This document shows, piece by piece, positions 1,490 through 30,717 of a DNA stretch of 64,000 nucleotides. The notes below the pieces were generated by a model. The model was not told the origin of the DNA. It saw only the letters and a list, made by a program, of their open reading frames with translations, and did not search any database. Made by a program: the position numbers and the translations under genes. How positions within the stretch are numbered: the stretch's first letter is position 1; the number at the start of each line of letters is the position of its first letter. The stretch is from Christensenellaceae bacterium (lineage in GTDB: Bacteria > Bacillota > Clostridia > Christensenellales > CAG-138). The DNA lies in contig OY762962.1 in assembly GCA_963667195.1 (NCBI GenBank), positions 1,370,591 through 1,434,590 on the forward strand, in the 5' to 3' direction.

Positions 1490-1571
1490 GATACACCTCC
1501 GAAAAATTTGAATACAGTCACAAAAATATTATAACATGTTTTTTCGCTTGCGTGAGGAACCGCGCTGAAAA

Positions 1572-3952: not shown

Positions 3953-4136
3953 TTACTCCTCCTGACGAGTCTTGTGGGATACAGACTTTGGCGGTGCTTC
4001 ACATCACCGCCTGCGTATAATATTATCCGCGTAGCCGTGGTGTGTCAATGGCGCGCGGCTGGATTTGCGGTTGCGCCCGCAAACACCGTTTCATAAAATT
4101 TTATATATGATTTCGTGCAGAATAGGGATAAATCGC

Positions 4137-4166
4137 TTGACAACCATTTTTCAGCAAGACTAAAAT
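4137..4166 (+). promoter_or_regulatory. candidate sigma-A promoter of asnA
   Basis: TTGACA (4137-4142), 18-nt spacer, TAAAAT (4161-4166). AAGGAGG SD lies before the ATG at 4204. Confidence 0.45.
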
Positions 4167-4203
4167 TATTGAATACCCGCACTGGGTCAAAGGAGGAGAA
4201 AGC

Positions 4204-5211: not shown

Positions 5212-5227
5212 CAAGCAAACTTCATCT

Positions 5228-5264
5228 GAACCGCGGCTCAAGTTGGGCTGCGGTTCTTTTTTTT
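5228..5264 (+). terminator. rho-independent terminator of asnA
   Basis: GAACCGC..GCGGTTC hairpin followed by an 8-T run. Confidence 0.7.
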
Positions 5265-5583
5265 GTCTTGTCGCACGGGATTATCAATCTTGCAAAGATA
5301 CACGCCTGTTTGCCCGAACTCGCTTAAACAGAACTTAATGTTGCCATGTAACAAATCGATCAAACAGCGGATTGAAAATACAAGCAACGCGGATGTAACA
5401 ACATTTCCAAAGCGACACCTAAAACATATATATTGTAGGAGAATTCACAGAAAAGACATGAATAAAAATCACAAAATGCAACAATTATGTAATGTAAATT
5501 GCGTACCATATGCTAGAGTCAAAAAATATATCTGTACATCTGCAGACGAGTGTCTGCACGCGAGAGTTCTAGGAGGCAAAAAT

Positions 5584-8500
5584 ATGAAATGGTCGCAGAT
5601 TAAAAAGGGTATCAGCCTGGTACTGTGTGTACTCATGGTGTTGACGCTGCTTCCAGTCAGCTCGCTGGCGGAAGATACGGCGCCTGTTGACACAAGCACC
5701 CCGGCCGAGGCAACGCAAACCGCAAGCGTGGAGACGCCTGTGGCCAGCGATGCGAGCACGCCCACGCCATCCGATGCGGCGACGCCCACGCCCGCGGTAA
5801 CGGATGCAGCGGCTTCCACGTCGCCGACGGAGGATATCGTTCCGGACGGACCCAAGACGTATGTCGTCAATTTTGTGATCGATCATCAAACCATCCTGGG
5901 CATGCAGCAGACCGTTGCGGAAGGTGGGCTTGTGACCGCTCCGAGCATTCCCGCTGTGCCGGATGGCGAAGAATATGTCGGCCAGGTCTTCCTTTACTGG
6001 TATGCTAAGGAAGGCGTCGCTTACGACTTTGGCACGCCTGTGACCTCCGACCTTGTGCTCTATGCGCAGTTTGGCACCACCAAGGATGCGCCCGCTACCG
6101 AAGAGCAGCCCATCGTTGCGGATGATGCTGTCCTGTTCTCAGCGTTCTCCATGGCGGGTGGTATTCTCCCTGAGAGTACTCCCCTTTGGACCTATACGTT
6201 TGTTTCCGGCGGAACGACGGTCGCGACCAAGATCGTCGCCAACGGCGACACGCTGGATGCGCCGGAAGTGCCGACTGCCCCCGTCGGCCAGAAGTTCTCC
6301 GGCTGGTACACCTCCGATAATACCCTCTTTGACTCATTTGGCACACAGACCGTAACAGCTGATGGCGCGACCACGTTGACTGCAAAGTTTGAGCCTGCCT
6401 ACTATGTCTTCTTCTACAATCAGTTCGGTGCGGTGATCGAGGTGCGCACGCCCGATGCAAGCAACATCGTCTCCACCGCAAGCGTTACTTCTCTTCAGCT
6501 TGGCTCCGATCAAGCCCTCACCGGCTGGTCGCTGACGTCCGGCGGAACGACGGATGTTGGCGCGAGTGTGACGGTCAACGGCGCGAACATCAACCTCTAC
6601 CCGATCATCAAGAGCGTGATCTGGATTACCTTTAACTCCAACGGCGGAACCTATATTTCGCCGATGTATATCATGCCGAATACGGCGCTGACGCAACTTG
6701 CCGTCAACAACTATATCTCCACGCAGAACGGCGGCTCCAGCACGATTGCGAAGGTAGGATACACCTTCAACAATTGGACCGGCTTTACCTTTGGCAATAC
6801 GCCGACCGCGAATGTTACCCTGACTGCGAACTGGACGCCGAAGACCAATACGCCTTATAAACTCGTATATTGGATCGAGAACGCGGACGACAGCAACTAT
6901 TCGTTTGAAAAGTCGGTCGATAAGACCGGAACGACGGACGCCGTCATTGCGCTGACCAGCGCGGAAACGGCGAACACCAACCTGAACGCGACCTACGCAA
7001 CGTACTTCAACACGGGTACGTATACCGCAGGACAAACGATCAAAGGCGATGGCTCCACCATCGTGAATATCTATCATACCCGCAAGACGTATACGTTGAC
7101 CTACAAAAACGGGAATACTACGCTCTACACGAGTACCTATAAATACGATCAGGATATCTCGGCGGTATGGAATATCGCCGCGATTTTGAACCTGTCGAAT
7201 CAGGGATACGTTTGGCAGAGCAGCATCACGCAGGACTACTATACGATTCTTTTGAAGATGCCGGGCAGCAACCTGACCATGACGGCAACGCAATGGAACG
7301 GAAGCACGTACACCTGGTACTACTATCTGGAGACCCTGGATGGAACCGCAGCAACCGCGCCGTCAGGTTCCACGACGACAACCAGCGGCGGCATCACCTA
7401 TTATCTGATGAAGTCGGTCACGATCAAGGGAAACAACATTAGCCTGACCTATAGTGAAGATTATTTCCCGATCACCGGCTTCTATCAAAGAGACAGCAGC
7501 GTACCGAACTTTACGAAGACCGGAACGGTGTATTACGCGTCCTTGTTCTATCGCCGTTCGAGCTACAGCCTGACCTTTATCAACGGCGATACATCGAACG
7601 TGATTGCCAGCATCAAATATCAGGCGCCTGTTTCCGGCTATAACTATACGCCGAACCAACCGTCCGGTGTCGATGCTTCATTTACATTCAACAAATGGTT
7701 TGCAACCGAAGCCGCGATTGCGGGAACGGAGTTCAACTGGACGCAGACGATGCCCGCAAAGAACATCGTATTGTACGCCAACTGGGTTGCTCCGGCGTTC
7801 ACCGGAATTGCGCACTCGGTTGCCTATGGTTCAACCGGCGACACGACCGTCGATCTCGGTTCGATTCCCTACGGCGGCACCATCAGCGCAAGCGCGCTTG
7901 CCGCGGCACAGAATGCCGCCAATGCGAACAAACCACATCCCACGGACACGTTCGGCGGCTGGCTGATCATGAAAAACGGCTCGCTGATCCTGTTCAACTC
8001 CAGCATGCAGATCTACGAAAACGTGGTGCTATACCCCGTTTGGCTCAGCACACTGAGCTATACCGTGACCTACAATCTTGGCGAGGCGAGCGGAACCGCG
8101 CCTGTGGACAGCAAAACGTATGCTTCCGGCGGGCAGGCGCAGATTCTCTCCTATAGCGCAAGCGCCGTCACACCTCCCGCGGACAAGGTATTCATCGGCT
8201 GGCGCTCCAGCGTGGACAGCAAGATTTACTATCCCAACAGCGTGTTGACGATCACGCAGAATACGACGATGACCGCCGTCTGGGTTTACCCGACGACCAA
8301 CGTTACCATCACCTATAACGGCAACGGCGGCGCAACATCCGGAGGCGCGACCACCTTTACGGGCGGCGCGGTCAACAACACCTATCACACCGTGCAGAGC
8401 AACTCCTTCCTGTACACCGGCAAGATCTTTGCAAGCTGGAACACGAAGGCGGACGGCACAGGTACTTCCTATGCACCCGGCGACAGCGTGCTTCTGGGAG

Positions 8501-11500
8501 TCAGCGTGCCTACCGCACCCGGCGTGCTGTATGCAATCTGGCAGGATCAGACGTTTGTTGTCAGCGTGACGGCAAACCCGACAGCGGGCGTCACAGCAAA
8601 GAGCGGTGCGGGAACGTATATCTACGGAACGAACACGACCGTCACCTGGACGGTAGCCGCAGGTTATGAAGTCACCAGCGTAACGGACAACACCGTTACG
8701 GTGCCTGCTTCCTCCTATACAGGCAACAGCTATACGCTCAGCGGCCTTACGGCGGATCACGCGATCGTGATCAACACCCAAAAGACGCTGTATAACCTGA
8801 CCTACAACGGCAACGGCGGAACGGTTGGCGGGAATGCAAGCTACAGCTCCACCAAGACGATGGGAACGAGCATCACCGTCGATCAAAACACGTTTACGCG
8901 TGCGGGTTATTACTTCCTCGGCTGGAGCACCAACTCTGGCGCGACGGCTGTGGACCCGACCTATGCGCCGGGCACCAGCGTGGTGATGCCGGGCAACGAC
9001 CTGACCCTCTACGCCGTCTGGGCGCCAAAGATGGCACTTACGCTGACGGCAAACAGCGCCACACAGAACTATGACGGAACGGCTAAGAGCGTTTCGGGTA
9101 TCACCTCGAGCGTCTCCGGCCTGACCATTGAAAACGCGACTGCCTCCGCCACCGGAACCAACCCGGGCGTCTACGCGACCAGCTTTACCAATCAGGCAGG
9201 GGTTGTGCTCAAGAGCGGCGGCGTTGACGTAACGAATCGATACACGGTGACCTGGGTTGCGGGTTCGCTGACCGTCAACCCGCAGGTAACCTATCGCGCC
9301 AGTGCGGACGGCTCCCTGATCGGCACCGAGTGGGTGGCTTACGGCACGGGTGACGCGACCTATAACGTGACCCCGCAGCCGAGCATCACGGTAAGCGGCA
9401 ACAAGTATTACTGGCTTGGCACATATAGCCCCGCGACGGCAAACGACCTGACCGCGAACACGACGATCTATGCGACGTATACGCGCAATAAAACGCTCGT
9501 GATCACCGCGGACAGCGCAAATTATACCTATGATGGAACAACCCGCTCCGTCACCACCGGCACCGTGAACGTGTCTGGCCTGACGGTCACGGGCTACACC
9601 GTTTCCGGCAGCGGCACCAACGTAGGTACATACACAACCAGCGTGACGCTTGGCGCGGTCAAGATCATGAACGGTGCTACGGACGTTACCTATCAATATG
9701 ATGTGACGACCGCAAACGGGCTGCTCACAATCAACCCCGCGACCACAACCGCGACTTCTTCCGGTTACAACGACAAGTACGACGGCAGCGCGCACGGGAT
9801 CACGGTCACGCCGAAGGTGGATAGCTCGACGGTCAAGTACAGCCTGACCAACAGCACGAACCCGGCGGACTACACGCTGACCAACAGCCCGACGGCGACG
9901 GATTACACCCCGGGAACCACAGTCTACTTCGTGGTCACCAACCCGAACTACAATCCGGTGTTCGGCAACGAGCAAGTTGTCATTAATAAGAGAGTTGTTG
10001 CGCTGACGACGGCGACCGACACGAAAGAGTACGATACTCTTCCGTTGACCAACGCTGCTTGGTCGTATGACTCGACCGGCAATGACGGCTTCGTCGCAGG
10101 CCAGGGTTTCGCAACCTCCGCGGCAAACGGCACGATCACCAACGTCGGTTCGACGGACAACACGTTTGGCTACACGCTGACCTCGGCGACCAACGCCAGC
10201 AACTACACGATCTCTGTCACCAAGGGCAAGCTGACGATCACGGCGTCCAACGACCTGAGCGTTGGTGCCACCGACGTGACCAAGAAATACGACGGAACGG
10301 CTTACGGTGTGAACGCTTCGGCGAACGTACCCGCAGGCACGACGGTTCGCTACAGCGAGACCTACAGCACGAACCCGGCGGACTACACCCTCACGACGAG
10401 CCCGACGGCAACGCACGTTGGCGACAGCAAGACCGTCTACTTTGTCGCAACCAACACGAACTACGAGCCTGCGTTCGGTAGCGCGAAGGTCACGATTACG
10501 CCTCGCGAAATCACGCTGACCGCTGCGACCGAGTCGCGTGATTACAACGGAAACGCGCTCACCAACGCGAACGTGACCGTCTCCGGCGACGGCTTCCTCG
10601 ACGGTCAGGGTTACGAAACCCTGCCCACCGCAAGCGGAACGGTCACCGACGTCGGTTCCGTGAAGAACAATGTCGTGGCGGGCACGCTGAATGCCAGCAC
10701 GATCGCAAACGATTATACCTTCACGCCGGTGCAAGGCGACCTCACCGTCACCGCTCGCGCGCTGACCGTGCAAGCGAACGACCAGCAGATCGCCTACCCG
10801 GCGAACCGTCCGGCGAACGCCGACCTGACCTACGCGGTCGTGAGCGGCACTGTTTCCGGCGAGACCCCGGCGTTCGGTGGGGCGCTTGGTTACGACGCGG
10901 CGAAACTGCCCGCGAGCCAGCCGTATACACCCGCGACCTACGCTGACGCAATCGTCGGCGGCACGCTGGCGCTGACCAACAGCGGCGCGTTCAAGGCATC
11001 CAACTACTCGTTGACCGTTCTGCCCGCCGACCTCAAGGTCGTCAACGGCGGATTCACCGTTGACCTCACGGGCGGTAGCTGGACCTACAACGGCGACCCG
11101 CATGGCCCGACGCTCAATAACACCAATCCGACGGACACGATCGAGTACTTCGTCTCCGACGGTGCAGGCGGCTGGACGAGCAACGGCGCGACACCTCCGA
11201 CCGTCACCAACGTGGACGACGGCCCGCTGACGATCAAGGTCGTGGTCAACCGCCCGGGATATGATCCGGCGGAAGACACCACGACGCTCACGATCACGCC
11301 GGCGACGACCACCGCGACCTCGTCGGGCTACAACGACAAGTACGACGGCAATGCGCACGGGATCACCGTGACACCGAAGGTGGAAGGCTCGACGGTCAAG
11401 TACAGCCTGACCGACAGCACGAATCCTGCGGATTACACCCTGACGACGAGCCCGACGGCGACCGACTACACCGCCGGCACGACGGTCTACTTCGTAGTCA

Positions 11501-14500
11501 CGAACCCGAATTACAACCCGGTGTTCGGCAACGAGCAAGTTGTCATTAATAAGAGAGTTGTTGCGCTGACGACGGCGACCGACACGAAAGAATACGACAC
11601 GCTGCCGTTGACCAACGCTGCTTGGTCGTATGACACGACGGGCAACGACGGCTTCGTCGCAGGCCAGGGCTTTGCGACCTCCGCCGCAAACGGCACGATC
11701 ACCAACGTCGGTTCGACGGACAACACGTTTGGCTACACGCTGACCTCGGCGACCAACGCCAGCAACTACACGATCTCTGTCACCAAGGGCAAGCTGACGA
11801 TCACGGCGTCCAACGACCTGAGCGTTGGTGCCACCGACGTGACCAAGAAATACGACGGAACGGCTTACGGTGTGAACGCTTCGGCGAACGTACCCGCAGG
11901 CACGACGGTTCGCTACAGCGAGACCTACAGCACGAACCCGGCGGACTACACCCTCACGACGAGCCCGACGGCAACGCACGTTGGCGACAGCAAGACCGTC
12001 TACTTTGTCGCAACCAACACGAACTACGAGCCTGCGTTCGGTAGCGCGAAGGTCACGATTACGCCTCGCGAAATCACGCTGACCGCTGCGACCGAGTCGC
12101 GTGATTACAACGGAAACGCGCTCACCAACGCGAACGTGACCGTCTCCGGCGACGGCTTCCTCGACGGTCAGGGTTACGAAACCCTGCCCACCGCAAGCGG
12201 AACGGTCACCGACGTCGGTTCCGTGAAGAACAATGTCGTGGCGGGCACGCTGAATGCCAGCACGATCGCAAACGATTATACCTTCACGCCTGTGCAGGGT
12301 GACCTGACCGTCACCGCTCGCGCGCTGACCGTGCAAGCGAACGACCAGCAGATCGCCTACCCGGCGAACCGTCCGGCGAACGCCGACCTGACCTACGCGG
12401 TCGTGAGCGGCACTGTTTCCGGCGAAACTCCGGCATTCGGTGGCGCGCTTGGTTACGACGCAAGCAAGCTCCCGGCGAGCCAGCCGTACACGCCCGCGAC
12501 CTACACCGACGCAATCGTCGGCGGTACGCTGGCGCTGACCAACAGCGGCGCATTCAAGGCATCCAACTACTCGTTGACCGTTCTGCCCGCCGACCTCAAG
12601 GTCGTCAACGGCGGATTCACGGTCGACCTGACCGGCGGCAGCTGGACGTACAACGGCGATCCGCACGGCCCGACGCTGACCAACACCAACCCGACGGATA
12701 CGATTGAATACTTCGTTTCCGACGGCGCGGGTGGTTGGACTTCTAATGGCACTACGCCTCCGACCGTCACGAACGTCTCGGACGGCCCGCTGACGATCAA
12801 GGTTGTCGTCAACCGTCCGGGTTACGATCCGGCGGAAGATACGACCACGCTGACGATCACGCCGGCGACCACGACGGCGACCTCGTCGGGTTACAACGAC
12901 AAGTACGACGGCAGCGCGCACGGAATCACGGTGACGCCGAAGGTGGACGGCTCGACGGTCAAGTACAGCCTGACCGACAGCACAAACCCGGCGGACTACA
13001 CGCTGACCACGAGCCCGACAGCGACGGACTACACCGCCGGAACTACTGTCTACTTCGTGGTGACGAACCCGAACTACAACCCGGTGTTCGGTCACGAGCA
13101 AGTTGTCATCAATAAGAGAGTTGTGGCGCTGACGACGGCGACCGACACGAAAGAGTACGATACCCTTCCGCTGACCAACGCGGCTTGGTCGTATGACACG
13201 ACTGGCAACGACGGCTTCGTCGCGGGCCAGGGCTTCGCGACCTCCGCGGCAAACGGCACGATCACCAACGTCGGCTCGACGGACAACACGTTCGGCTACA
13301 CGCTGACGGGTGTCACGAGCGCCAGCAACTACACCATCTCCGTCACGAAGGGCAAGCTGACGATCACGGCGTCCAACGACCTGACCGTTGGTGCCACCGA
13401 CGTGACCAAGAAATACGACGGAACTGCCTACGGTGTGAACGCTTCGGCGAACGTACCCGCTGGCACGACGGTTCGCTACAGCGAGACCTACAGCAACAAT
13501 CCGGCGGACTACACGCTGACCACCAGCCCGAACGCGACGCATGTTGGAGACAGCAAGACCGTCTACTTCGTCGCAACCAACACGAACTACGAACCCGCGT
13601 TCGGCAGTGCGAAAGTGACGATCACGCCGCGCGCGATCACCTTGACTGCCGCGACCGAGTCGCGTGATTACAACGGCAACGCGCTGACCAACGCGAACGT
13701 GACTGTCTCCGGCGACGGCTTCCTCGACGGACAGGGTTACTCTGTTGCGCCCACCGCAAGCGGCACGATCACCGACGTCGGTTCCGTGAAGAACAACGTC
13801 GTGGCAGGCACGCTGAATGCCAGCACGACGGCAAGCGATTACACATTCACGCCTGTGCAGGGTGACCTGACCGTCACCGCGCGCGCGCTAACCGTGCAGG
13901 CGAACGATCAGCAGATCGCATACCCGGCGAACCGTCCGGCGAACGCCGACCTGACCTACACGGTCGTGAGCGGCACTGTTTCCGGCGAGACCCCGGCCTT
14001 CGGTGGTGCGCTTGGTTACGACACGGCGAAACTGCCCGCGAGCCAGCCTTACACACCCGCGACCTACGCTGACGCGATTGTCGGCGGAACGCTAGCGCTG
14101 ACCAACAGCGGCGCGTTCAAAGCCGCAAACTACACGCTCACCGTTCTGCCCGCCGACCTGAAGGTCGTCAATGGTGGATTCACCGTTGATCTCACGGGCG
14201 GCAGCTGGACGTACAACGGCGACCCGCATGGACCTACGCTGACCAACACCAACCCGACGGATACGATTGAATACTTCGTTTCCGACAGTGCAGGCGGCTG
14301 GACATCGAACGGCACGACGCCGCCGACCGTGACGAACGTCTCGGACGGTCCGCTGACCGTGAAAGTCGTCGTCAACCGTCCGGGTTATGATCCGGCGGAA
14401 GACACCACGACGCTCACGATCACGCCCGCGACCACGACAGCGACCTCGTCGGGCTACAACGACAAGTACGACGGCAGTGCGCACGGCATCACAGTCACGC

Positions 14501-17500
14501 CGAAGGTCGACGGCTCGACGGTCAAGTACAGCCTGACCGACAGCACAAACCCGGCGGACTACACGCTGACCACGAGCCCGACAGCGACGGACTACACCGC
14601 CGGAACTACTGTCTACTTCGTGGTGACGAACCCGAACTACAACCCGGTGTTCGGTCACGAGCAGGTTGTCATTAATAAGAGAGTTGTGGCGCTGACCACC
14701 GCGACCGACACGAAGGAGTATGACACTCTTCCGTTGACGAACGCGAGCTGGAGTTACGACACCACGGGCAACGACGGCTTTATCGCAGGTCAGGGCTTCG
14801 CGACCTCCGCGGCAAACGGCACGATCACCAACGTCGGCTCGACGGACAACACGTTCGGCTACACGCTGACCGCCGCGACCGCCGCCAGCAACTACACGAT
14901 CTCCGTCACGAAGGGCAAGCTGACGATCACAGCGTCCAACGACCTGAGCGTTGGTGCCACCGACGTGACCAAGAAATATGACGGAACTGCCTACGGTGTG
15001 TCCGCCTCTGCGAACGTGCCCGCCGGAACGACGGTCAAGTACAGTCTGACCAACAGCGCAAACCCGGCGGACTACACGCTGACCACCAGCCCGACCGCAA
15101 CGCACGTTGGCGACAGCAAGACCGTTTACTTCGTCGCAACCAACGCGAACTACGAACCCGCGTTCGGCAGCGCGAAGGTGACGATCACGCCGCGCGCGAT
15201 CACGCTGACCGCCGCGACCGAAACCCGCGATTACAACGGCAACGCGCTCACCAACGCGAGCGTGACCGTCTCCGGCGACGGCTTCCTCGACGGACAGGGT
15301 TACTCTGTTGCGCCCACCGCAAGCGGCACGATCACCGACGTCGGTTCCGTGAAGAACAACGTCGTGGCAGGCACGCTGAATGCCAGCACGACGGCAAGCG
15401 ATTACACATTCACGCCTGTGCAGGGTGACCTGACCGTCACCGCGCGCGCGCTAACCGTGCAGGCGAACGATCAGCAGATCGCATACCCGGCGAACCGTCC
15501 GGCGAACGCCGACCTGACCTACGCGGTCGTGAGCGGCACTGTTTCCGGCGAGACCCCGGCCTTCGGTGGTGCGCTTGGTTACGACACGGCGAAACTGCCC
15601 GCGAGCCAGCCTTACACACCCGCGACCTACGCTGACGCGATTGTCGGCGGAACGCTAGCGCTGACCAACAGCGGCGCGTTCAAGGCATCCAACTACACGC
15701 TGACCGTTCTGCCCGCCGACCTCAAGGTCGTCAACGGCGGATTCACCGTCGACCTCACCGGCGGCAGCTGGACCTACAACGGCGACCCGCATGGACCTAC
15801 GCTCAATAACACGAACCCGACGGATACGATCGAGTACTTCGTTTCCGACAGCGCAGGCGGCTGGACATCGAACGGCACCACGCCTCCGACCGTGACGAAC
15901 GTCTCGGACGGTCCGCTGACCGTGAAAGTCGTCGTCAACCGTCCGGGTTATGATCCGGCGGAAGACACCACGACGTTGACGATCACACCCGCGACGACCA
16001 CCGCGACCTCGTCCGGCTACAACGACAAGTACGACGGCAGCGCGCACGGGATCACCGTGACGCCGAAGGTCGACGGCTCGACGGTCAAGTACAGCCTGAC
16101 CAACAGCACGAACCCCGCGGACTACACGCTGACCACCAGCCCGACCGCGACCGACTACACGGCAGGAACCACGGTCTACTTCGTGGTGACCAACCCGAAT
16201 TACAACCCGGTGTTTGGGCATGAGCAGATCGTAATCAATAAGAGAGTTGTGGCGCTGACGACGGCGACCGACACGAAGGAATATGACACTCTTCCGTTGA
16301 CCAACGCGAGCTGGAGCTACGACACCACCGGTAACGACGGATTCGTCGCGGGGCAGGGCTTTGCGACCTCCGCGGCGAACGGCACGATCACCAACGTCGG
16401 CTCGACGGACAACACGTTCGGCTACACGCTGACGGGTGTCACGAACGCCAGCAACTACACGATCTCCGTCACGAAGGGCAAGCTGACGATCACAGCGTCC
16501 AACGACCTGAGCGTTTCGGCGTCCGACGTGACCAAGAAATATGACGGAACGGCTTACGGTGTGAACGCTTCGGCGAACGTACCCGCTGGCACGACGGTTC
16601 GCTACAGCGAGACCTACAGCACGAACCCGGCGGACTACACGCTCACGACGAGCCCGACCGCGACGCACGTTGGCGATAGCAAGACCGTCTACTTCGTCGC
16701 GACGAATAGCAACTATGAACCCGCGTTCGGCAGCGCGAAGGTGACGATCACGCCGCGCGATGTTGTGGTGCGCACGTATGGCGCAACAAAGGTCTATGAC
16801 GGACTTGCGCTGACGGCGAGCGGTTGGAGCATGGATCCCGCGAGCAGCGGATTTGTCGCAACGCAGGGCTTTGCGACCACGGCGAACACGGGAATGCTCA
16901 CGGATGTAGGCTCGGTTGAAAACGGCTTTGCCTACACGCTCAAGAGCAACACGACAGCTTCCGACTACGCCATCAGCGTGGTTCCGGGCACATTGAGTGT
17001 TACCCCGCGCGCGGTGCTGATCGCGGCGGATCAGACCGACAAGAACTTCGGCAGTGCGGACCCGACGTTTACCTACACCGTGCTGACCGGAACGATTGGC
17101 GGAACGACCTACTATCCGATTCTTGCGGCAGACCTTGGCGGCATCACCGTGACCGTCAACCGCTCGAGCGGTGGAAACAATGTCGGCACCTATGCGGATG
17201 CGCTGGTTCCGAACGTGAATGCAACCGCAGCGGTGCAGAAGAACTACACCTTCAGCACGCAGACGGCGGACTTCACGATCAATCCGCAGGTGGTCTACAA
17301 CCTCAACACCACGGATACGGTTACGGGATTCCCCGAAACGCAGTGGTTTGACCTCGGTTCGAACGCGACGGTCGCTTCGGCGGACGGCGTGAAGCGTCCG
17401 GGCTTCCGTCTGACCGGTTGGGAAGACGCGGCGACGGGTGATCCGGTGACCCTTGGCGGCACGATTCCGGCAATCGCCGGGAATCACACGCTGAACGCGG

Positions 17501-18615: not shown

Positions 18616-18640
18616 CACAAACTAACTGCATCAACACGCA

Positions 18641-18675
18641 TCCGGCGTCCTGCCAAAGGGACGCCGGATTTTTTG
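18641..18675 (+). terminator. rho-independent terminator of the giant gene
   Basis: TCCGGCGTCC (18641-18650) pairs with GGACGCCGGA (18659-18668), followed by TTTTTTG. Confidence 0.75.
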
Positions 18676-18872
18676 TTGCCGGTCGATCCAAAAGCACCCG
18701 CGAAACTTGTTTCGTGACACGAAGCGGAGGACGGTTTTTGATGAACTGATACAGGATGCGATCTGCTGTAACAATATCAATCGAGAGCGAATCCGCGAAA
18801 GCACATGTAACACAAAACCGCCTAAAATACGGTTGATCTCGAGCAGGCAGAACGTGTCCAAGTAACAATCTG

Positions 18873-18902
18873 TTGCATTTTCGTGATTTTAAGCGGTATA
18901 AT
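18873..18902 (+). promoter_or_regulatory. candidate promoter of the transglutaminase/pilus-like operon
   Basis: TTGCAT (18873-18878), 18-nt spacer, TATAAT (18897-18902). The TTG that the ORF track uses as a start is the -35 element. Confidence 0.4.
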
Positions 18903-18908
18903 CAGCTC

Positions 18909-19817
18909 ATGAAACAAGGGTCGGTGGCCGAACGGCTGCAAAAAGGGTTTGGGTGGCTGCTTTTATTCGGCTTCTTCTGCCTTTCGGCTTGTGCGGCGAG
19001 CCAACCCGCGCGACCGGACGCGGCTGGGACCGACTCTGTAAGCGCGCGCGCAAGCGCCTCCGGGACGGAGGAAGCCGTGCCGCTGCTGCTGCCCGAAGCC
19101 TCCGGAACCGTGGTTTACATCGGAGAAGGTGTGACCATCGACGCCTCGCATACCGACCAGGGATACGTGATGATCCGCTGCGAAGCGAGCGAAAAGCGCC
19201 TCAAGGCGCGGATTGCGACAGACGCGCAAACCTACTATTACGACCTGCCCGGCGGAGAGGCATACAGCGTGTTTCCGCTCCAGATGGGCGACGGAACCTA
19301 TACCGTGCGCGTGATGGAGCAGGTGCAGGACGACCTGTACGCGATGCGCTACGGAACCGAGATACAGGTGGTGCTTGCGGACGAGACCATACCTTTTCTG
19401 TATCCCAATCAATATGTGTGGTATGATGCAAATACCGAGGCCGTTCAGAAAGCGCGCGAGCTCGCGAGCGGGCTGACCAGCCACAAAGAGATTGCAACCC
19501 GCTTCTACAAATATGTTGTTTCACACATGACCTATGACACGGAAAAGGCGAAGACGGTTCGAAAAGGTTATCTGCCGAACGCGGATGATTCACTGGAAAG
19601 CGGAACAGGAATCTGCTTTGACTATGCGGCGCTGTTTGCGGTGATGCTTCGCGCCGAGGGAATCCCGACGAAGATGCTCATCGGCACCGTTACGCCGGAG
19701 AATCTCTATCACGCCTGGAACAGCGTCTATCTCGACGGAACATGGGTCTGGATGGACACGACACTGGATGGAACCGGACACAGAGAGAACGATTATCTCA
19801 CCGAACGAATCTATTGA
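18909..19817 (+). CDS. transglutaminase-like (papain-fold) lipoprotein
   Basis: MKQGSVAERLQKGFGWLLLFGFFCLSAC carries a lipobox (L-S-A-C). The transglutaminase core is present with Cys in GTGICFDYAALF, His in LYHAWNSVY and Asp in WVWMDTT. Confidence 0.85.
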   Translation: MKQGSVAERLQKGFGWLLLFGFFCLSACAASQPARPDAAGTDSVSARASASGTEEAVPLLLPEASGTVVYIGEGVTIDASHTDQGYVMIRCEASEKRLKARIATDAQTYYYDLPGGEAYSVFPLQMGDGTYTVRVMEQVQDDLYAMRYGTEIQVVLADETIPFLYPNQYVWYDANTEAVQKARELASGLTSHKEIATRFYKYVVSHMTYDTEKAKTVRKGYLPNADDSLESGTGICFDYAALFAVMLRAEGIPTKMLIGTVTPENLYHAWNSVYLDGTWVWMDTTLDGTGHRENDYLTERIY

Positions 19818-19892
19818 TCGCATCTTTAAGAATTATGATTTTTTAACCTGCATGTATATCAGCGGGTGGTCAACCATCAGAAAGGAACGGGA

Positions 19893-20948
19893 ATGCAGGA
19901 GAACACGACGCAGAAAACGCTTCCGCCGGACGAGACCGCGCTCTTTTGCGAGCAGGTAGCCATGGTGCTCAAGGCGGGCATTCCGCTGGGAGACGGCATG
20001 GAGACCCTTGCGCGGAGCTATGCGGGCAGCCGATATGGCGCGCGCTTTGAGAACATGCGCGAGGCGTTGGAGCGCAGGGGTACATTTTCAGAGGCGCTGG
20101 AGGAAGCGGGCATTTTCCCGAGCTACCTGCTCGCCATGACGCGCATCGGAGAACGCTCCGGCAAGCTCGACGAGGTGATGGCCTCGCTTGCGAACTATTA
20201 TCAATGGGAAGCGCAGATCAAGTCCTCGGTCAAGAGCGCAATCCTCTACCCGAGCGTACTGGTCATGATGCTTGCGGTCGTGATCGCGATCCTCGTCATC
20301 AGCGTGCTGCCGGTGTTTCAGCGTGTGTTCGATAGCCTCGGCCTCGTGGCGGGCAGCCCGGCAACGGCTGCGATGCAAATCGGCGTCGGCGTCGGAAAAG
20401 GCATGCTGATCCTCGTTGGCGTATTCGCGGTCGCGCTCGTGGTCATCGGTATCCTGCTTCGCACGAACAGACGGCTCTCGGTTCTTGCGCTGCTGGCAAA
20501 GGTGATTCCCTCCGTGCGCCGCGTCAACGCAAGGCTTTCCACCGCGCGGTATGCTTCCGCGCTGTCGATGATGCTTACCGCAGGCTATCCGGTTGAGGAG
20601 GCGATGCAGCTCGCGCCGTCGGTGGTGACGGATGAAAAGCACCGGCGTCAGGCGGAGATTGCGCGGCAGGAGCTGTTCTCCGGCGGCAGTTTTCCGCAGG
20701 CGGTGGAAAAGAGCGGCCTGTTTGATCCCATGCACGAAAAGATGATTCGCTTTGGTACAGCGGCGGGAAAACTGGACGCCGTGATGCAGAAGCTCAGCGG
20801 AATCTATATGACCGAGGCGGATGACGCGATTCACAACGTGATCGCCATGATTGAACCCGCGCTGGTTGCGGTGCTCTCCATCGTCATCGGCGGAATCCTG
20901 CTTTCCGTCATGCTGCCGCTGCTGTCCGTGCTGTCTGCGGTCGGTTGA
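19893..20948 (+). CDS. type II secretion / type IV pilus platform protein (GspF/PilC family)
   Basis: Two T2SS-F-like halves each end in G..GKLD..M..L...Y (..RIGERSGKLDEVMASLANYY and ..FGTAAGKLDAVMQKLSGIY), with three TM segments. The ATG at 19893 has a GAAAGGAAC SD. The GTG at 19866 is an alternative start. Confidence 0.85.
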   Translation: MQENTTQKTLPPDETALFCEQVAMVLKAGIPLGDGMETLARSYAGSRYGARFENMREALERRGTFSEALEEAGIFPSYLLAMTRIGERSGKLDEVMASLANYYQWEAQIKSSVKSAILYPSVLVMMLAVVIAILVISVLPVFQRVFDSLGLVAGSPATAAMQIGVGVGKGMLILVGVFAVALVVIGILLRTNRRLSVLALLAKVIPSVRRVNARLSTARYASALSMMLTAGYPVEEAMQLAPSVVTDEKHRRQAEIARQELFSGGSFPQAVEKSGLFDPMHEKMIRFGTAAGKLDAVMQKLSGIYMTEADDAIHNVIAMIEPALVAVLSIVIGGILLSVMLPLLSVLSAVG

Positions 20949-21077
20949 GCCCCGAGAACGAACTAAATTTTACTGAAAAAACAGTCGTTGGCAACAGAAA
21001 ACCGGCGTTTCGTGACAAGGCCGCGTCTTTTGCGGCGATCGCTTGATACACTATCGTCACCGAAAGGAGAATTCGGC

Positions 21078-21407
21078 ATGCATCTCTACGAGAAACCGCG
21101 CGGGCTCAACTGTGGGCTGATTTTCGCGATTGTCGTGTTTGCGCTGCTTGTCGCGTTCTTCCTGCTATCGCTGTTCTCTACTGCCGGGCGCAACGACGCA
21201 CGCGAAACCGAGATGGTAACCTCCGCATTACAGCGCGCGATCGTCACTTGCTATGCGGTGGAAGGCAAGTATCCGCCGAATCTTTCTTATTTGTATGACA
21301 ACTACGGCGTTCGCGTGGACGAGAGCCGTTATGCCGTGTTCTATGATGTCATCGCGTCCAACGTGATGCCGAGCGTCGAGGTTGTACGTGTGGGAGGCGG
21401 CTCATGA
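21078..21407 (+). CDS. small membrane protein, pseudopilin-like (non-canonical leader)
   Basis: GAAAGGAGA SD before the ATG at 21078. The N-terminus MHLYEKPRG-LNCGLIFAIVVFALLVAFFLL is basic, then Gly, then a hydrophobic helix, with no Glu5. The stop overlaps the next start (ATGA). Confidence 0.6.
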   Translation: MHLYEKPRGLNCGLIFAIVVFALLVAFFLLSLFSTAGRNDARETEMVTSALQRAIVTCYAVEGKYPPNLSYLYDNYGVRVDESRYAVFYDVIASNVMPSVEVVRVGGGS

Positions 21408-21904
21408 GCGCGCGGACTTCCGCCAAACAGCGCAACGACATGCGCGGTGCGTTCATCTTCGCGCTGCTTGCCGCGTTTGCGTTACTGAGCCTGATTGTGG
21501 TCATCGTCGGTGCGCGGTCATATCGAGGCATCAATGCGATGGCGGAGCAGGCGTTTCTCTCCCGCACGGGCATGAGCTATCTCGTCGGCAAAGTGCGCGG
21601 CGCGGACGCGGCAGGCCAGATTGAGATCGTACAGGAAGGCGACTTGACCGTGCTGACCCTCGGTCAGGAGCTGGATGGCGAGAGGTATTTGACATATATC
21701 TACTGCGACGGAACAAAGGTGTGCGAGTATTTTGCGCAGGCGGACGTCGCGTTTTCGCCGGATTACGGCGAGAAGATCTTTGATGCCAGCGGGCTTATGT
21801 TCTCTTTGGAAAACGGGCTCTTGCAGATTTCGATCGTTGACGCGGGCGGCAACACGCACACGGGAGCGGTCTATCTGCGGGCGGCAAAGGAGGGCGGTGC
21901 GTAA
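21404..21904 (+). CDS. pseudopilin-like membrane protein (possibly DUF4860-like; recollection only)
   Basis: ..KQRNDMRG-AFIFALLAAFALLSLIVVIV. GGGAGG SD. Start and stop overlap both neighbours (ATGA, TAATG). Confidence 0.62.
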   Translation: MSARTSAKQRNDMRGAFIFALLAAFALLSLIVVIVGARSYRGINAMAEQAFLSRTGMSYLVGKVRGADAAGQIEIVQEGDLTVLTLGQELDGERYLTYIYCDGTKVCEYFAQADVAFSPDYGEKIFDASGLMFSLENGLLQISIVDAGGNTHTGAVYLRAAKEGGA

Positions 21905-22323
21905 TGGAACAGATGCTTCGCCCGCCGAAAAGGCGCGGGGTATTCAGCCCGATCCTGATCGAGATGACCATCGTGATCCTGTTTCTCGCGCTGTCCACCA
22001 GCGTGGTGGTTCGCTTGATTGCGGCTGCGAATATCACGGCTCAGCAGAGCGCGTATGAATCCCGCGCCATCCTCGCGATGGAGCAGGTTGCGGAGCAGGT
22101 TAAGGCGGACCCGGTTGGGGACAACACTTGCAACGCCTGCGGGGCTCGCGTCTTCTCAACCAAAATCGCGGACGACCTCACGGTAGACTGCGTGGTAACC
22201 AGCGATGATTCCCCTCTGCAAGGGACACTGTATGACATCGAGCTTACCGTCACATCCCCGGAGGGAAAGGTGTTCGCGCTGGACGCGGCGCGTTACCTGC
22301 CGGATGCGGAGGTGACGCCATGA
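21904..22323 (+). CDS. pseudopilin-like membrane protein with a displaced LIEM motif
   Basis: ..PPKRRG-VFSPILIEMTIVILFLAL. This is the only one of the four with a Glu in the helix, and it sits at +8 rather than +5 if cleavage follows Gly. AAGGAGGG SD. Confidence 0.62.
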   Translation: MEQMLRPPKRRGVFSPILIEMTIVILFLALSTSVVVRLIAAANITAQQSAYESRAILAMEQVAEQVKADPVGDNTCNACGARVFSTKIADDLTVDCVVTSDDSPLQGTLYDIELTVTSPEGKVFALDAARYLPDAEVTP

Positions 22324-22736
22324 AACCGTATTCGTCCCGAATGGGGGTTGGAGCCTCCAGCATACTATTGATTCTCGTGGTGGTGAGTTTAACGCTGTTT
22401 GCGTCGCTTGCGCTGATTCAGGCGCGATCCGACGCGGCGCTCACCCAAAAGACCGCCGTGAGCACACGCGCCTATTACGACGCGGACACCCAGGCACAGA
22501 CGATGCTCGCGGCATTGGACGACGCTCTTCAGCAAGGCAATGCCTTGAACAGCATCGAAGGTGTGACGAAACAGGCGGACGGAAGCTATGCGTTTTCGGT
22601 TGAGGCGAGTGACGGGCACGCGCTGAACGTCGTGGTCGGCGTGACCACCGGAAGATGCGAAATCCTAAGCTACCGCTATGAAAACACACAGGACTGGACA
22701 GAGCAAGGCACGGGCAAGCTCTGGCAGGGAGGTTAA
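22320..22736 (+). CDS. pseudopilin-like membrane protein (ComGG/PilX-like layout)
   Basis: MKPYSSRMGVG-ASSILLILVVVSLTLFASLAL. GGAGGTG SD. ATGA overlap with the upstream gene. Confidence 0.62.
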   Translation: MKPYSSRMGVGASSILLILVVVSLTLFASLALIQARSDAALTQKTAVSTRAYYDADTQAQTMLAALDDALQQGNALNSIEGVTKQADGSYAFSVEASDGHALNVVVGVTTGRCEILSYRYENTQDWTEQGTGKLWQGG

Positions 22737-22741
22737 CGAAG

Positions 22742-23803
22742 ATGGCAGAGATTCATGATATTTTGCAATCTGCCATCGAGCGTGGCGGATCGGATGTGTT
22801 TATCATTCCCGGCTCGTGCGTGCGGCTCAAGGTTGCGGGCGAAGTACAGCCGTTGCTCAGCACGGTGCTCAAGCCCGACGATACCAAGCGCCTGATCCGA
22901 CAGGTGTACGAGCTGGATAATCGGGACATGGATCGTCTGACCGAGCATGGCGATGACGACTTTTCGTTTTCCGTCAGCGGAGTCGGCAGGTTTCGCTGCA
23001 ACGCATATCAGCAGCGCAATTCGCTCGCCATGGTGCTTCGCGTGGTGTCGCTGGTGTTGCCGGACCCGGTGAAGATGCATATTCCTGAGGAGATTTTGCG
23101 CCTTGCAGATGTCAAAAAAGGTCTTGTGCTGGTCACGGGCCCTGCCGCAAGCGGAAAATCGACCACACTCGCGTGCCTGATCGACCGGATCAATAATAAC
23201 CGCCACGGGCACATCATCACGATTGAAGACCCGATCGAGTTTATCCACGCGCACAAGGCAAGCGTACTCAGCCAGCGTGAGGTGGAGCACGATACCAAGA
23301 GCTATCAAACCGCCCTGCGCGCGGCGCTCCGGCAGGCGCCGGACGTGATCCTGCTGGGAGAAATGCGCGATCTGGAGACGATTCAAACCGCGCTGACCGC
23401 GGCGGAAACCGGCCAGCTCGTGCTCAGCACACTGCACACCGTCGGAGCGGCAAAGACGATCGACCGCATCATCGATGTTTTTCCCGCAAACCAGCAGCAG
23501 CAGATTCGCGTGCAGCTTTCGATGGTGCTCCGCGCGGTGGTCAGCCAGCAGCTCCTGCCGACCGTGGACGGCGGCTTGGAGCCCGCGTTTGAGATCATGC
23601 TGGTCAACAGCGCGATTCAAAACATGATCCGCGAGGGCAAGGCGCACCAGATGGACAACGTCATCTTCTCCGGTTTATCCGAGGGGATGCGAACGATGGA
23701 TTCGGACATCTACCGCTTAGTTTGCGAAAAGCGCGTAACCAAAGAGACCGCGCTGCTGTTTGCGGCAAACCCTGATCAACTGCGCAAGAAACTCGGCGAA
23801 TAG
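22742..23803 (+). CDS. pilT: PilT-family type IV pilus (retraction-type) ATPase
   Basis: 353 aa. Walker A is LVLVTGPAASGKSTT. Other PilT motifs are ITIEDPIEFIH, SQREVEHDTKSY, DVILLGEMRDLET, LSTLHT, DRIIDVFP and the PilT-specific AIQNMIREGK. Confidence 0.9.
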   Translation: MAEIHDILQSAIERGGSDVFIIPGSCVRLKVAGEVQPLLSTVLKPDDTKRLIRQVYELDNRDMDRLTEHGDDDFSFSVSGVGRFRCNAYQQRNSLAMVLRVVSLVLPDPVKMHIPEEILRLADVKKGLVLVTGPAASGKSTTLACLIDRINNNRHGHIITIEDPIEFIHAHKASVLSQREVEHDTKSYQTALRAALRQAPDVILLGEMRDLETIQTALTAAETGQLVLSTLHTVGAAKTIDRIIDVFPANQQQQIRVQLSMVLRAVVSQQLLPTVDGGLEPAFEIMLVNSAIQNMIREGKAHQMDNVIFSGLSEGMRTMDSDIYRLVCEKRVTKETALLFAANPDQLRKKLGE

Positions 23804-23912
23804 CGCGCTGAAACGCAAGACAAGCTGAAATCATCACGAAAGTGTGATCGATATTTACTCCGGCGGTGCGCTCCAGCCCGCCCAACACGCCAGAACACAA
23901 GGAGGAGACGGC

Positions 23913-25160
23913 ATGCCTAACGCAAAGATTAAAATCAAGATGTTTGGCAATTTTGAGATCGTGGTCAACGGAAATGTTGCGCTCACGCAACTTCGCCAGG
24001 CAAAGAAGACCAGCCAGTTTCTCGAGTATTTGATCTTGAAGAAAGATCGCGCGGTTCCGCACGAAGAACTGCTTGAGATGCTCTGGTCGGACAAAGAAAA
24101 CCGCAATCCGGCGACCGCGTTGCGCACACTGCTGCACCGCTATCGCTCGCTTGTCGATCAAAGCGAGCTGCCGGAACTGTCGGATTCGATTTTAACCGCG
24201 CGTGGGGCATATCAATGGAATCCGAATCTGGACTGCGAAATCGACGTGTTCGAGTTTGAGCGGCTTTGTCAGGAGGCGCGCACGCCCGGCATGAGCAATC
24301 GCGAGTGCATCGAGCGCTACCTCCAGATGCTACAGATTTACACGGGCCCGCTGCTCACCAACTCCGCCGAGGAGATGTGGGTCGTGCCCAAGAGCGTGTA
24401 TTATCACGACCTCTTTTTAGAGAGCGTGTTCACGCTGCTCGACCTGCTCAAGGTGGAAGAGGAGTACGATGTCATCGTTCAGGTTTGCCGCAAGGCGATG
24501 GACGTGGATATGTTTGACGAGCGTTTGCATCTGGAGCTGATGATGGCGCTGGTCAAGACGGGCAAGAAGCGCGAAGCGCTCTCGCAGTATTATTTCGCGA
24601 CCGACCTGCACTATAAGCAGCTCGGCATCCAGCCCTCCGGCGAAATCCGCGCGGTGTACAAGCTCATCGTGCAGGCGGATCAGGAGATGGAGGCGGACAT
24701 CGAGAAGGTGCAGAACATGCTCGAGGAGGATACCGACGGGCACGGCGCTTTCGTCTGTGAATATGAGATCTTCAAGGAGATCTACCAGCTACAGCGCCGC
24801 ATGCTGGAGCGCTATAACGGAACGATGTTCCTGGCTCTGCTGACCATCAGCAACACCTATGAGCAGCGCTTTGACAACCTTGTTCTGGACAACATCATGA
24901 AGCAGCTGCTGCATGTGTCGCAGACCAACCTCCGCCGCGGAGACACGATCTCCCGCTACAGCGTGATGCAATATGTCGTACTGCTTCCATCGGTGACATA
25001 TGAGACGGGCAGGCTCGTCATGGATCGCATCAAGAAGGCGTTTTACAACGAGTACGTCAAATCCAGCGTGGTGCTGACGTATAAGCTCAGACCGCTTTGC
25101 ATCAATAAGTATGACACCAACACGCAAAAGAAGATCGCGGAGTTCAAGGAAGACGAATGA
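23913..25160 (+). CDS. SARP/BTAD-family transcriptional regulator with a C-terminal degenerate GGDEF-like domain
   Basis: AAGGAGGAG SD before the ATG at 23913. A winged-helix region (FGNFEIVVNG..FLEYLILKKDRAVPHEELLEMLW) is followed by a BTAD helical region (..LHLELMMALVKTGKKREALSQYY..LGIQPS..). The C-terminus ..LALLTISN..LRRGDTISRYSVMQYVVLLP.. has SVMQY where GGDEF would sit. Confidence 0.78.
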   Translation: MPNAKIKIKMFGNFEIVVNGNVALTQLRQAKKTSQFLEYLILKKDRAVPHEELLEMLWSDKENRNPATALRTLLHRYRSLVDQSELPELSDSILTARGAYQWNPNLDCEIDVFEFERLCQEARTPGMSNRECIERYLQMLQIYTGPLLTNSAEEMWVVPKSVYYHDLFLESVFTLLDLLKVEEEYDVIVQVCRKAMDVDMFDERLHLELMMALVKTGKKREALSQYYFATDLHYKQLGIQPSGEIRAVYKLIVQADQEMEADIEKVQNMLEEDTDGHGAFVCEYEIFKEIYQLQRRMLERYNGTMFLALLTISNTYEQRFDNLVLDNIMKQLLHVSQTNLRRGDTISRYSVMQYVVLLPSVTYETGRLVMDRIKKAFYNEYVKSSVVLTYKLRPLCINKYDTNTQKKIAEFKEDE

Positions 25161-26615: not shown

Positions 26616-26674
26616 TTTTTTTGCACCTGCGGTGCGGGCTAAATAAAAGATAAGAATACGCTTAAAGAAGGATT

Positions 26675-27023: not shown

Positions 27024-27027
27024 GCGT

Positions 27028-28146: not shown

Positions 28147-28280
28147 CAACACGCGAAACGACCGAAAGAAACCAACAGGCGCGGAGGTGAACTCCGCGCT
28201 GTTTTCACGAAACAGATGCGGTTTTCGATCCACGCTGATGAAGAGCGCCGGCGATGACCGCGAGAGACGGAGGAATGGAT

Positions 28281-30705: not shown

Positions 30706-30717
30706 GGGGGACAAACA

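Follow-up and report, generated by a model that had tools for sequence, protein, structure and literature searches.

Type IV filament machines share a division of labour in which a PilB-type ATPase builds the filament, a PilT-type ATPase retracts it and a dedicated peptidase matures every subunit. Among the closest described systems is the "minor TFP operon" (TFP, type IV pili) of C. perfringens, pilB1-pilC1-pilA4-CPE1841...CPE1836, which is of unknown function and encodes a single ATPase, a single platform and a number of small proteins, of which some have a pilin-like N-terminal helix but lack homology to known pilins (PMC6958937). The Tad pilus provides a precedent for a single ATPase, CpaF, that serves both extension and retraction (Denise 2019; PMC11300603). 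The periplasmic cysteine protease LapG of P. fluorescens, which has been called transglutaminase-like, cleaves the giant adhesin LapA, and this cleavage is controlled by a receptor for cyclic di-GMP (c-di-GMP) with degenerate domains (PMC3032545). A PilT-only type IV filament system is described neither in Denise 2019 nor in Pelicic 2019, nor was one found otherwise, and no paper was found on a coupling of PilT and transglutaminase in Firmicutes. Here we describe a seven-gene module from a Christensenellaceae bacterium in which a PilT-type ATPase is encoded together with a PilC/GspF-type platform, four small proteins (s1 to s4) and an extracytoplasmic lipoprotein of the transglutaminase fold; it lies on the plus strand of a 64,000-nucleotide stretch of contig OY762962.1 (positions 1,370,591 to 1,434,590), which was analysed as a whole and is referred to below as the window.

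A preliminary description of the window, made from the sequence alone, had recorded nine consecutive plus-strand genes, and all nine are present in the open reading frame (ORF) calls, where they fill positions 5584-25160. The same nine genes with the same sizes are found on a near-identical 96.9-kb ENA contig that carries an independent gene call, and the gene starts used here are those of that call. The true unit is nevertheless smaller, a seven-gene module at 18909-23803, whilst the giant surface protein gene before it is a lineage-specific neighbour that lies outside the conserved module and the regulator gene after it is a facultative neighbour. Relatives were collected in two scans: the ATPase was searched against one genome per species, giving 20 Bacillota loci at 52-94% identity, after which ordinary PilTs of other phyla are listed, and a motif of s1 was searched in species-representative genomes, giving at least 599 matching stretches from which 80 further loci were taken. 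All ORFs in these 100 loci were clustered, and the locus counts given below refer to them. Each of the seven families is present in 91-97 of the 100 loci (the lipoprotein in 91, the platform in 94, s2 in 97), and the order lipoprotein-platform-s1-s2-s3-s4-ATPase recurs in all 20 ATPase-derived loci and in most of the 80 derived from s1, with the lipoprotein gene nearly always directly upstream of the platform gene. ORF clustering of the 100 loci revealed no further conserved family around the module, only lineage-specific housekeeping synteny; a sortase, LCP (LytR_cpsA_psr), GT4 and a MatE-family transporter with weak similarity to MurJ are found near it only sporadically. The neighbourhood whose conservation among relatives had been proposed as a check is conserved as regards the operon and the lipoprotein but not as regards the adhesin, which is confined to the clade of the window and one Holdemania.

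The module is found in Christensenellales, Oscillospirales, Lachnospirales, Peptococcaceae, Sedimentibacter and Erysipelotrichales, and the organisms recovered with s1 include Lacrimispora, Hungatella, Enterocloster aldenensis, Butyricicoccus, Caproiciproducens, Ventrimonas, Oscillospiraceae, Anaerovoracaceae and Erysipelotrichaceae. In Lachnospiraceae it sits between a housekeeping block and either ldh or a gene like those for penicillin-binding proteins (PBP-like), the block resembling ispF, cysS, mrnC and rlmB when N-terminal sequences were compared by eye and without a family search. Its place within this housekeeping synteny points to vertical inheritance in the core genome, and vertical descent is the reading adopted here for many Clostridia and some Erysipelotrichia.

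The ATPase (22742-23803, 353 amino acids) is the only secretion-type ATPase of the module, and it had been proposed to be of the PilT rather than the PilB or ComGA type, a proposal that is borne out by family models, by structures and by phylogeny. It belongs to the PilT/PilU family, matching TIGR01420 with 414.5 bits (cutoff 319.1) over residues 4-345, whilst the NCBIfam models for ComGA (135 bits, cutoff 300), GspE (126 bits, cutoff 630) and PilB (113 bits) all fall far below their cutoffs. Against solved structures it aligns over its full length with Aquifex PilT (2gsz/2ewv; 333 bits, residues 4-349), whereas PilB, GspE and PilF structures give 73-90 bits (PilB about 86) through the P-loop core only, and the protein has no extra N-terminal (MshEN/GSPII) domain. 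The Walker A motif, Asp box, Walker B motif, His box and AIxNxIRE region are kept across 21 module ATPases, and the window protein carries GPAASGKSTT, EDPIE, DVILLGEMRD, TLHT and AIQNMIREGK; the longer motifs quoted for it previously, ITIEDPIEF and QREVEHDTKS, are likewise present in the translation. Merely five positions consistently set the module ATPases apart from canonical PilT. Among candidates for an entirely different role, a defence-system reading was rejected, PADLOC yielding generic P-loop matches alone for this protein.

A tree was built by neighbour-joining only, with 100 bootstraps, from 97 PilT-type and 25-26 PilB-type sequences of the fetched loci. The PilT group, module ATPases included, is recovered in 100/100 bootstraps, and inside it the 21 module-linked ATPases are monophyletic in 99/100. 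Their sisters are clostridial PilTs that adjoin PilB, the nearest outgroup being the PilT of locus L022, followed by those of L081, L082, L085 and L089. Locus L022 is from a Christensenella metagenome-assembled genome (MAG) and holds, at 384-11053, a complete monoderm type IVa pilus (T4aP) locus with PilC, PilM, PilN, PilO, two N_methyl pilins, PilB and PilT, as well as a 906-amino-acid protein like bactofilin/FapA. A separate clade that is sister to PilB-adjacent PilTs points to a dedicated paralogue and not to the general retraction ATPase of the cell, and the simplest reading of the tree would be a duplication of a clostridial PilT, after which the module took over one of the two copies.

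The platform (19893-20948, 351 amino acids) had been described as of the PilC/GspF type, and this stands for what is an inner-membrane protein, as it matches Pfam T2SSF in two stretches (3.6e-46, 156.6 bits, cutoff 25.2) and is thereby a type IV filament platform. It falls below the equivalog cutoffs of GspF (195 bits, cutoff 424), ComGB (131 bits, cutoff 240) and PilC. Its N-terminus is shortened; in the alignment with Myxococcus PilC (3jc8, 122 bits) residues 16-350 correspond to PilC 81-416. By its platform and ATPase together the module is assigned to the type IV filament superfamily.

The four small proteins are less readily placed. All four had been described as having a basic N-terminus, a Gly and a hydrophobic helix, and as a conserved feature this holds for s4 but not for s1, s2 or s3; none of them matches N_methyl above threshold. 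The clearest relationship is that of s3 (21904-22323, 139 amino acids), which has a short basic leader and a hydrophobic helix, and whose profile, drawn up from 19 orthologues, finds solved type IV pilins through their N-terminal helix (geopilin 9egp, E 0.0036; Thermus PilA4, 0.023; S. sanguinis PilE1, 0.08). The intramembrane Glu of s3 aligns with pilin Glu5 and is present in 93/93 orthologues, so that s3 is classed here as type IV pilin-like, although matches to N_methyl or T2SSI are weak and limited to single members. The residue at the pilin -1 position is Asn in 31, Gly in 22 and Ser in 12 of 96 orthologues. Prepilin peptidases require Gly at this position (Gly-1), and its scarcity suggests that most s3 proteins would be poor substrates for such an enzyme.

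The opposite pattern is found in s4 (22320-22736, 138 amino acids), in which Gly11 lies just before the hydrophobic helix in 87/87 orthologues and the +5 position is Ile or Leu and never Glu. A Gly without the Glu is likewise seen in the cap subunits GspK, PilX and ComGG. There is no Pfam or PDB sequence match to s4, and the NCBIfam model pilin_ComGG_2 is matched by four of 20 orthologues, at best with E 0.00077 and in all cases below cutoff; taken together with the Gly this suggests that s4 is probably a ComGG/GspK analogue. The s4 orthologues (L001-L020; 22700-22736 in the window) also share a C-terminal LW(Q/D/E/N)G with at most a few residues after it, which could be a contact or processing site; no connection with the transglutaminase-fold enzyme was found.

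The two remaining proteins are pilin-like in architecture only. Protein s1 (21078-21407, 109 amino acids) is bitopic, with a basic N-terminal stretch followed by a hydrophobic helix, and has invariant residues at C58, E62, G63, Y65, P66, Y71, Y76, G77, Y89, N95 and P98. Its family comprises 1288 clusters at 50% identity, of which all members listed are hypothetical or unnamed and none has a Pfam domain, nor does any Pfam family cover s1 itself. Protein s2 (21404-21904, 166 amino acids) matches Pfam DUF4860 (4.2e-22), its relatives are named solely "DUF4860 domain-containing protein", and no paper on DUF4860 was found. AlphaFold2 models, computed from alignments built from protein-search hits, place in s1 a helix at residues 12-62, a short helix and a beta-hairpin (predicted local distance difference test, pLDDT, 80), and in s2 an N-terminal anchor helix at 2-69 followed by a beta domain of eight strands (pLDDT 85). 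In Foldseek the best three matches of s1 are full-length type IV pilins (5vxx, 1ay2, 6xxd), non-significant at E 0.7-2 and with a TM-score (TMq) of at most 0.50, and the highest TM-score and probability for s2 belong to a Thermus type IV-like pilin, 5g24_B, again non-significant (TMq 0.38, probability 0.77). The two models share the "lollipop" layout of pilins, with s1 a minimal version of it. Neither orthologue alignment contains a conserved Gly or Glu in the N-terminal segment, and profiles of s1, s2 and s4 found nothing meaningful among PDB sequences.

The first gene of the module encodes the lipoprotein (18909-19817, 302 amino acids), which matches Pfam Transglut_core over residues 193-295 of a 314-amino-acid ORF (6.6e-21, 75.1 bits, cutoff 23). 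It had been said to keep an intact papain-like triad, in the motifs GICFDYA, YHAWNSV and WMDTT; all three are in the translation, and the Cys (GxCxDY), His (YHAW) and Asp (xDxT) are invariant in 17/17 orthologues, which places the protein in the transglutaminase-like superfamily (PF01841). The lipobox in the window is L-S-A-C; among the orthologues a lipobox is the rule, and those without one have a signal peptide. From the invariant triad and the export signal we would predict that the lipoprotein is active-site competent and works outside the membrane. Its nearest solved relative (E 5.6e-5) is 3isr, a structural-genomics entry for a putative cysteine protease that is itself uncharacterised. 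No match to the LapG-type family BTLCP was obtained, the only Pfam matches at E up to 0.1 being Transglut_core, DUF553 and Transglut_core3. Prepilin peptidases cut at the cytoplasmic face of the membrane, and an extracytoplasmic position therefore argues against the lipoprotein being a substitute for such a peptidase.

Several canonical parts of type IV filament machines are absent from the vicinity of the module. It had been stated that no PilB, prepilin peptidase or G/FTLIE pilin is present in the 64 kb, and the searches agree: among 31 of the longest non-overlapping ORFs of the window outside the module (at least 150 amino acids) Pfam found no PilB/GspE-type ATPase, Peptidase_A24 or N_methyl pilin, and a six-frame pattern search of the window found no canonical class III leader of the G-F-T-L-I-E type. 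A match to PilM_2 at 29524-30705 is FtsA. With a PilB query no PilB-type gene was found within 7-10 kb of the module in the 80 loci, an absence that is local only, and PilM, PilN, PilO and a canonical pilin are likewise missing within that distance in the 80 loci and from the window. The window and the flanks of the 80 loci accordingly do not hold the combination of PilB with PilM/PilN/PilO that marks a T4aP. Nor is the module a ComG locus, the ComGA and ComGB models scoring under cutoff and no ComGC or N_methyl match being obtained, or a type II secretion system (T2SS), the GspE and GspF models likewise scoring under cutoff, with no T2SSG-type match and no secretin. At the scale of whole genomes, the PilB of L022 used as a query returned at least 600 matches, those listed being mostly from distant phyla and not including even its own contig, and the N-terminal 200 amino acids of an Enterocloster PilB returned three near-identical genomes only; no assembly is visibly common to the module-bearing and PilB-bearing lists, but the first of these scans was saturated and the second too specific for them to bear on co-occurrence.

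Given a conserved operon with its lipoprotein, the phrase "minimal filament or secretion device" that had been used for this locus is a fair description. The reading we favour, with middling confidence, is that the product of the module is probably a short pseudopilus, which acts together with the extracellular enzyme and has the PilT-like ATPase as sole motor. The PilT-like hexamer would dock on the PilC-like platform as the only motor and would both push s1-s4 out of the membrane and draw them back, as a piston or short pseudopilus confined to the zone of the wall. In such a device the core would be formed by s3 and capped by s4, a ComGG/GspK-like protein without the Glu, with s1 and s2 as adaptors, and because Gly-1 is conserved only in s4 most of the subunits would not be processed by a prepilin peptidase. 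The lipoprotein would act outside the membrane, on a wall or surface substrate, in step with the device, and the SARP-type regulator, where it is present, would probably tie expression to c-di-GMP through a degenerate GGDEF domain that keeps the RxxD. A further step, which we advance only tentatively, is a self-sufficient filament machine that has a PilT-family ATPase for its sole motor, for assembly or for both directions, whose subunits mostly go unprocessed by a prepilin peptidase and which is mechanically coupled to the extracellular transglutaminase-fold enzyme.

A number of observations weigh against the short pseudopilus. An assembly machine with PilT only is without precedent, and in every studied system PilT retracts whilst PilB assembles, the two having opposite senses of rotation in the canonical model (Pelicic review). 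With a canonical T4aP locus in L022, PilB, PilD and a major pilin could act in trans, and the invariant Gly of s4, at the position where a prepilin peptidase cuts, hints that a peptidase is encoded elsewhere. As regards the small proteins, profile-profile comparison among s1-s4 gave 25-49% probability through the membrane helix alone, so that paralogy is not demonstrated, and the fold matches of s1 and s2 against the PDB are those non-significant ones given above. Both the production of a filament and the substrate of the lipoprotein are, moreover, predictions from the genes alone.

The explanation that survives best beside the pseudopilus is that the module is an accessory operon, which supplies a second platform, minor pilin-like proteins and a retraction ATPase to a T4aP or Com pseudopilus; the PilB, PilD and major pilin of the latter machine would have their genes at another place in the genome. 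We regard this as possible, if somewhat doubtful. PilT is the retraction ATPase in all studied systems (Denise 2019, Pelicic review), and a canonical T4aP locus does exist in the related Christensenella MAG; some type IV filament loci, MSH for example, have no peptidase of their own and are believed to use one from elsewhere (Denise 2019). The Gly at the cleavage position in every s4 orthologue and ftsA and ftsZ, 5.7 kb downstream of the module, are also on the side of an accessory operon. Set against this, the ATPase clade is separate from that of the PilB-adjacent clostridial PilTs, the module has a platform of its own, and three of the four small proteins are without the Gly-1 that a prepilin peptidase needs. 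The lipoprotein has no counterpart in canonical pilus loci and yet accompanies the module in nearly all loci, and the 7-10 kb around the module in the 80 loci, as well as the window, have none of the PilB, PilM, PilN, PilO and canonical pilin genes to which such an operon would be accessory.

It would seem improbable that the module forms no filament at all and is instead a force transducer, in which a complex of ATPase, platform and s1-s4 switches the wall-remodelling or surface-processing activity of the extracellular enzyme, although the idea has a parallel in FtsEX, which controls extracellular peptidoglycan hydrolases. That the lipoprotein, with its invariant triad, is tied to the operon almost without exception is what such a transducer would require, as are the lack of a detectable major pilin and of a peptidase nearby; envelope genes (GT4, LytR_cpsA_psr, sortase, PBP-like by eye, ftsA/ftsZ) are moreover frequent if variable neighbours. 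The pilin-type helix of s3, however, keeps the Glu that is used in filament assembly, platforms of the PilC type are known from filament machines only, and no evidence ties this transglutaminase subfamily to peptidoglycan.

The two genes that flank the module in the window had been given a larger part in the preliminary description, which proposed a machine perhaps dedicated to the neighbouring 4,343-amino-acid repeat protein and under the control of the adjacent orphan regulator. The giant surface protein (5584-18615) has a signal peptide and the Flg_new (five stretches) and MBG_2 matches that had been anticipated, as well as fn3_6, and it has no LPXTG. Between 9700 and 17500 its gene contains four to five tandem copies of a 1563-nucleotide (521-amino-acid) unit at 84-95% nucleotide identity, found by a direct-repeat search; Tandem Repeats Finder reported nothing in the gene, since the period exceeds 500 nucleotides. 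These repeats also give rise to very long antisense ORFs, for example at 8029-13542 on the minus strand (1837 amino acids), which are almost certainly not genes. The C-terminus (18200-18615) has three hydrophobic helices (WALLNLILAIV..., ILTENM..PM..D.WT.LM), an ending that is shared by a 1210-amino-acid Flg_new protein beside the module in Holdemania (L008:16300-16717) and that seems to be a C-terminal membrane anchor which recurs among clostridial surface proteins. A homologue of the giant protein or its anchor adjoins the module only in the clade of the window (the window itself, L002, L009, L162-166, L169 and L170) and in Holdemania L008, where it lies on the opposite side of the module from the window arrangement; it is absent near the module from the other approximately 85 of the 100 loci. 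The link with an adhesin is thus real within one lineage, yet it cannot explain the module in those loci that are without the adhesin, and a machine dedicated to this protein is unlikely.

The regulator (23913-25160, 415 amino acids) had been called SARP/GGDEF-like, of which the first part stands and the second is weakened. It has an OmpR-like winged helix (Trans_reg_C, 26.3 bits against a cutoff of 26.2, thus borderline) and a BTAD domain (7.5e-18, 65.7 bits, cutoff 22.1), and is a member of the SARP family, whilst GGDEF scores 15.3 bits, below its cutoff of 23.8, so that the protein does not qualify as a diguanylate cyclase. Residues 324-404 match an NCBIfam DgcR-like model (E 1.2e-6), and within approximately residues 345-375 (24900-25050) S-V-M-Q-Y stands in place of GGDEF; the RxxD five residues upstream of the lost motif is kept in 8/8 orthologues. 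Loss of the one motif and retention of the other are typical of degenerate GGDEF domains that bind c-di-GMP, and the protein may therefore combine a SARP-type DNA-binding regulator with a receptor domain for c-di-GMP. The gene adjoins the module, upstream or downstream, in just 28 of the 100 loci, and control by an adjacent regulator is not borne out in the form proposed.

That the device displays or releases the giant adhesin, which the enzyme would cut at a level set by the regulator in a Gram-positive analogue of LapA-LapG-LapD, is very improbable, since, for all that LapG cleaves LapA under a c-di-GMP receptor (PMC3032545), that a giant adhesin, a transglutaminase-fold enzyme and an RxxD-keeping degenerate GGDEF domain adjoin here, and that the same C-terminal anchor protein occurs throughout the window clade and, independently, at the opposite flank of the module in Holdemania, no such adhesin is nearby in about 85 loci, no regulator adjoins in 72, a strong terminator ends the giant gene, the lipoprotein matches Transglut_core and not the LapG-type family, and the Lap system has nothing that resembles a pilus machine.

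The terminator that had been attributed to the giant gene is real and graded strong: an intrinsic plus-strand terminator lies between this gene and the module at 18640-18679, with a 12-pair stem (8 G-C) at 18640-18669, a loop of 6 and then the T run TTTTTGTT. On the 5' side of the lipoprotein gene (18873-18911) there is a TTGCAT, an 18-nucleotide spacer and a TATAAT that ends 6 nucleotides ahead of the ATG; the pair was found by eye and is absent from the list of the automatic scan. The lipoprotein gene has no Shine-Dalgarno sequence, and its mRNA may be leaderless. Each gene from the platform through the ATPase is preceded by a Shine-Dalgarno-like sequence, the s1-s2-s3-s4-ATPase junctions are overlapping or nearly abutting (-4, -1, -4 and +5 nucleotides), and no convincing plus-strand terminator was seen inside the run from platform to ATPase. 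The genes for the platform, the small proteins (all four of them bitopic) and the ATPase are a translationally coupled set that is inherited together. No riboswitch or other known RNA family reaches the Rfam gathering score anywhere in the 64 kb, which includes the isoleucyl-, arginyl- and seryl-tRNA synthetase genes at 35159-41812, where no T-box does so either.

Past the regulator, at 25392-32070, follow a GT4 glycosyltransferase, an epimerase, a PGA_cap-like gene, ftsA (29524-30705) and ftsZ (30718-32070). In the gap between the GT4 and epimerase genes (26688-27023) there is a 96-nucleotide tandem repeat of 3.5 copies with 96% matches. Among the clustered loci the ftsA family is near the module only in the window and L002. 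A glycosyltransferase is also found in the compared gene stretch of C. novyi and C. tetani (PMC6958937), and the proximity of ftsA/ftsZ and a glycosyltransferase may be a remnant of shared ancestry. Further downstream there is an island of low guanine plus cytosine (GC) content at 42000-44700 (0.44, compared with about 0.57 elsewhere) with a YbjQ-like gene and a WYL/helix-turn-helix regulator, and an HNH endonuclease gene at 48678-49451 in a second lower-GC region (0.49); both regions may be acquired DNA.

What makes the module unusual is the combination of a platform and pilin-like parts with a motor of the PilT type only and a fixed enzymatic partner outside the membrane. Were a PilT-sole-motor machine to prove true, the rule that assigns extension to PilB and retraction to PilT would be broken, and a new type IV filament family that is common in gut Clostridia would be defined. 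Should the module work on its own, it would be a natural case in which to ask whether assembly, or movement in both directions, can be powered by a PilT motor. Even a conservative outcome would give names to several thousand hypothetical proteins. Of the small-protein families only that of s2 has a Pfam model, and this describes a domain of unknown function. Cultivable carriers are found among gut and environmental Clostridia, in Lacrimispora, Enterocloster aldenensis, Butyricicoccus pullicaecorum, Caproiciproducens and Sedimentibacter.

When set beside the known systems the module resembles the monoderm T4aP, as found in C. perfringens, S. sanguinis and L022, with which it shares a PilC-type platform with two T2SSF domains, a PilT-family ATPase with all of its catalytic motifs, a subunit (s3) with a short basic leader and a Glu-bearing hydrophobic helix, and the lack of a secretin that is expected in a monoderm. 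It differs from such pili in that the module and its flanks are without PilB, PilM/PilN/PilO, a prepilin peptidase and an N_methyl pilin, that Gly-1 is unconserved in three of the four subunits, that the ATPase forms a separate clade and that a transglutaminase-fold lipoprotein is a fixed component. The Com pseudopilus (comGA-comGG) offers a second likeness, being like the module a compact operon with one ATPase, one platform, several small pilin-like proteins and no PilM/PilN/PilO; the last small protein of the module, s4, is weakly ComGG-like and lacks the Glu, and the expected product would in both cases be short and within the wall. The module ATPase is however of the PilT type and its gene comes last rather than first, a major pilin of the ComGC type with its class III signal is lacking, no link to ComC, ComEA or ComEC was detected, and there is instead a transglutaminase-fold partner.

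CpaF/TadA of the Tad pilus belongs to another ATPase clade, and the TadB/TadC platforms, Flp pilins and TadV peptidase have no equivalent here. With LapA-LapG-LapD the window has in common that a giant repeat adhesin, a papain-like cysteine enzyme outside the cytoplasm and a GGDEF-type domain in degenerate form are all present, in the window in adjoining genes, but the Lap system uses type I secretion and has no pilus-like parts, the window lipoprotein is outside the LapG family, and neither adhesin nor regulator is a conserved partner of the module. The C. perfringens minor TFP operon resembles the module by description only, and differs from it in having a PilB-type assembly ATPase and a recognisable pilin, PilA4. 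With a filament-type platform and a pilin-like subunit, a PilT-clade motor of its own and an enzyme as its constant companion, we read the module as an undescribed variant of the type IV filament.

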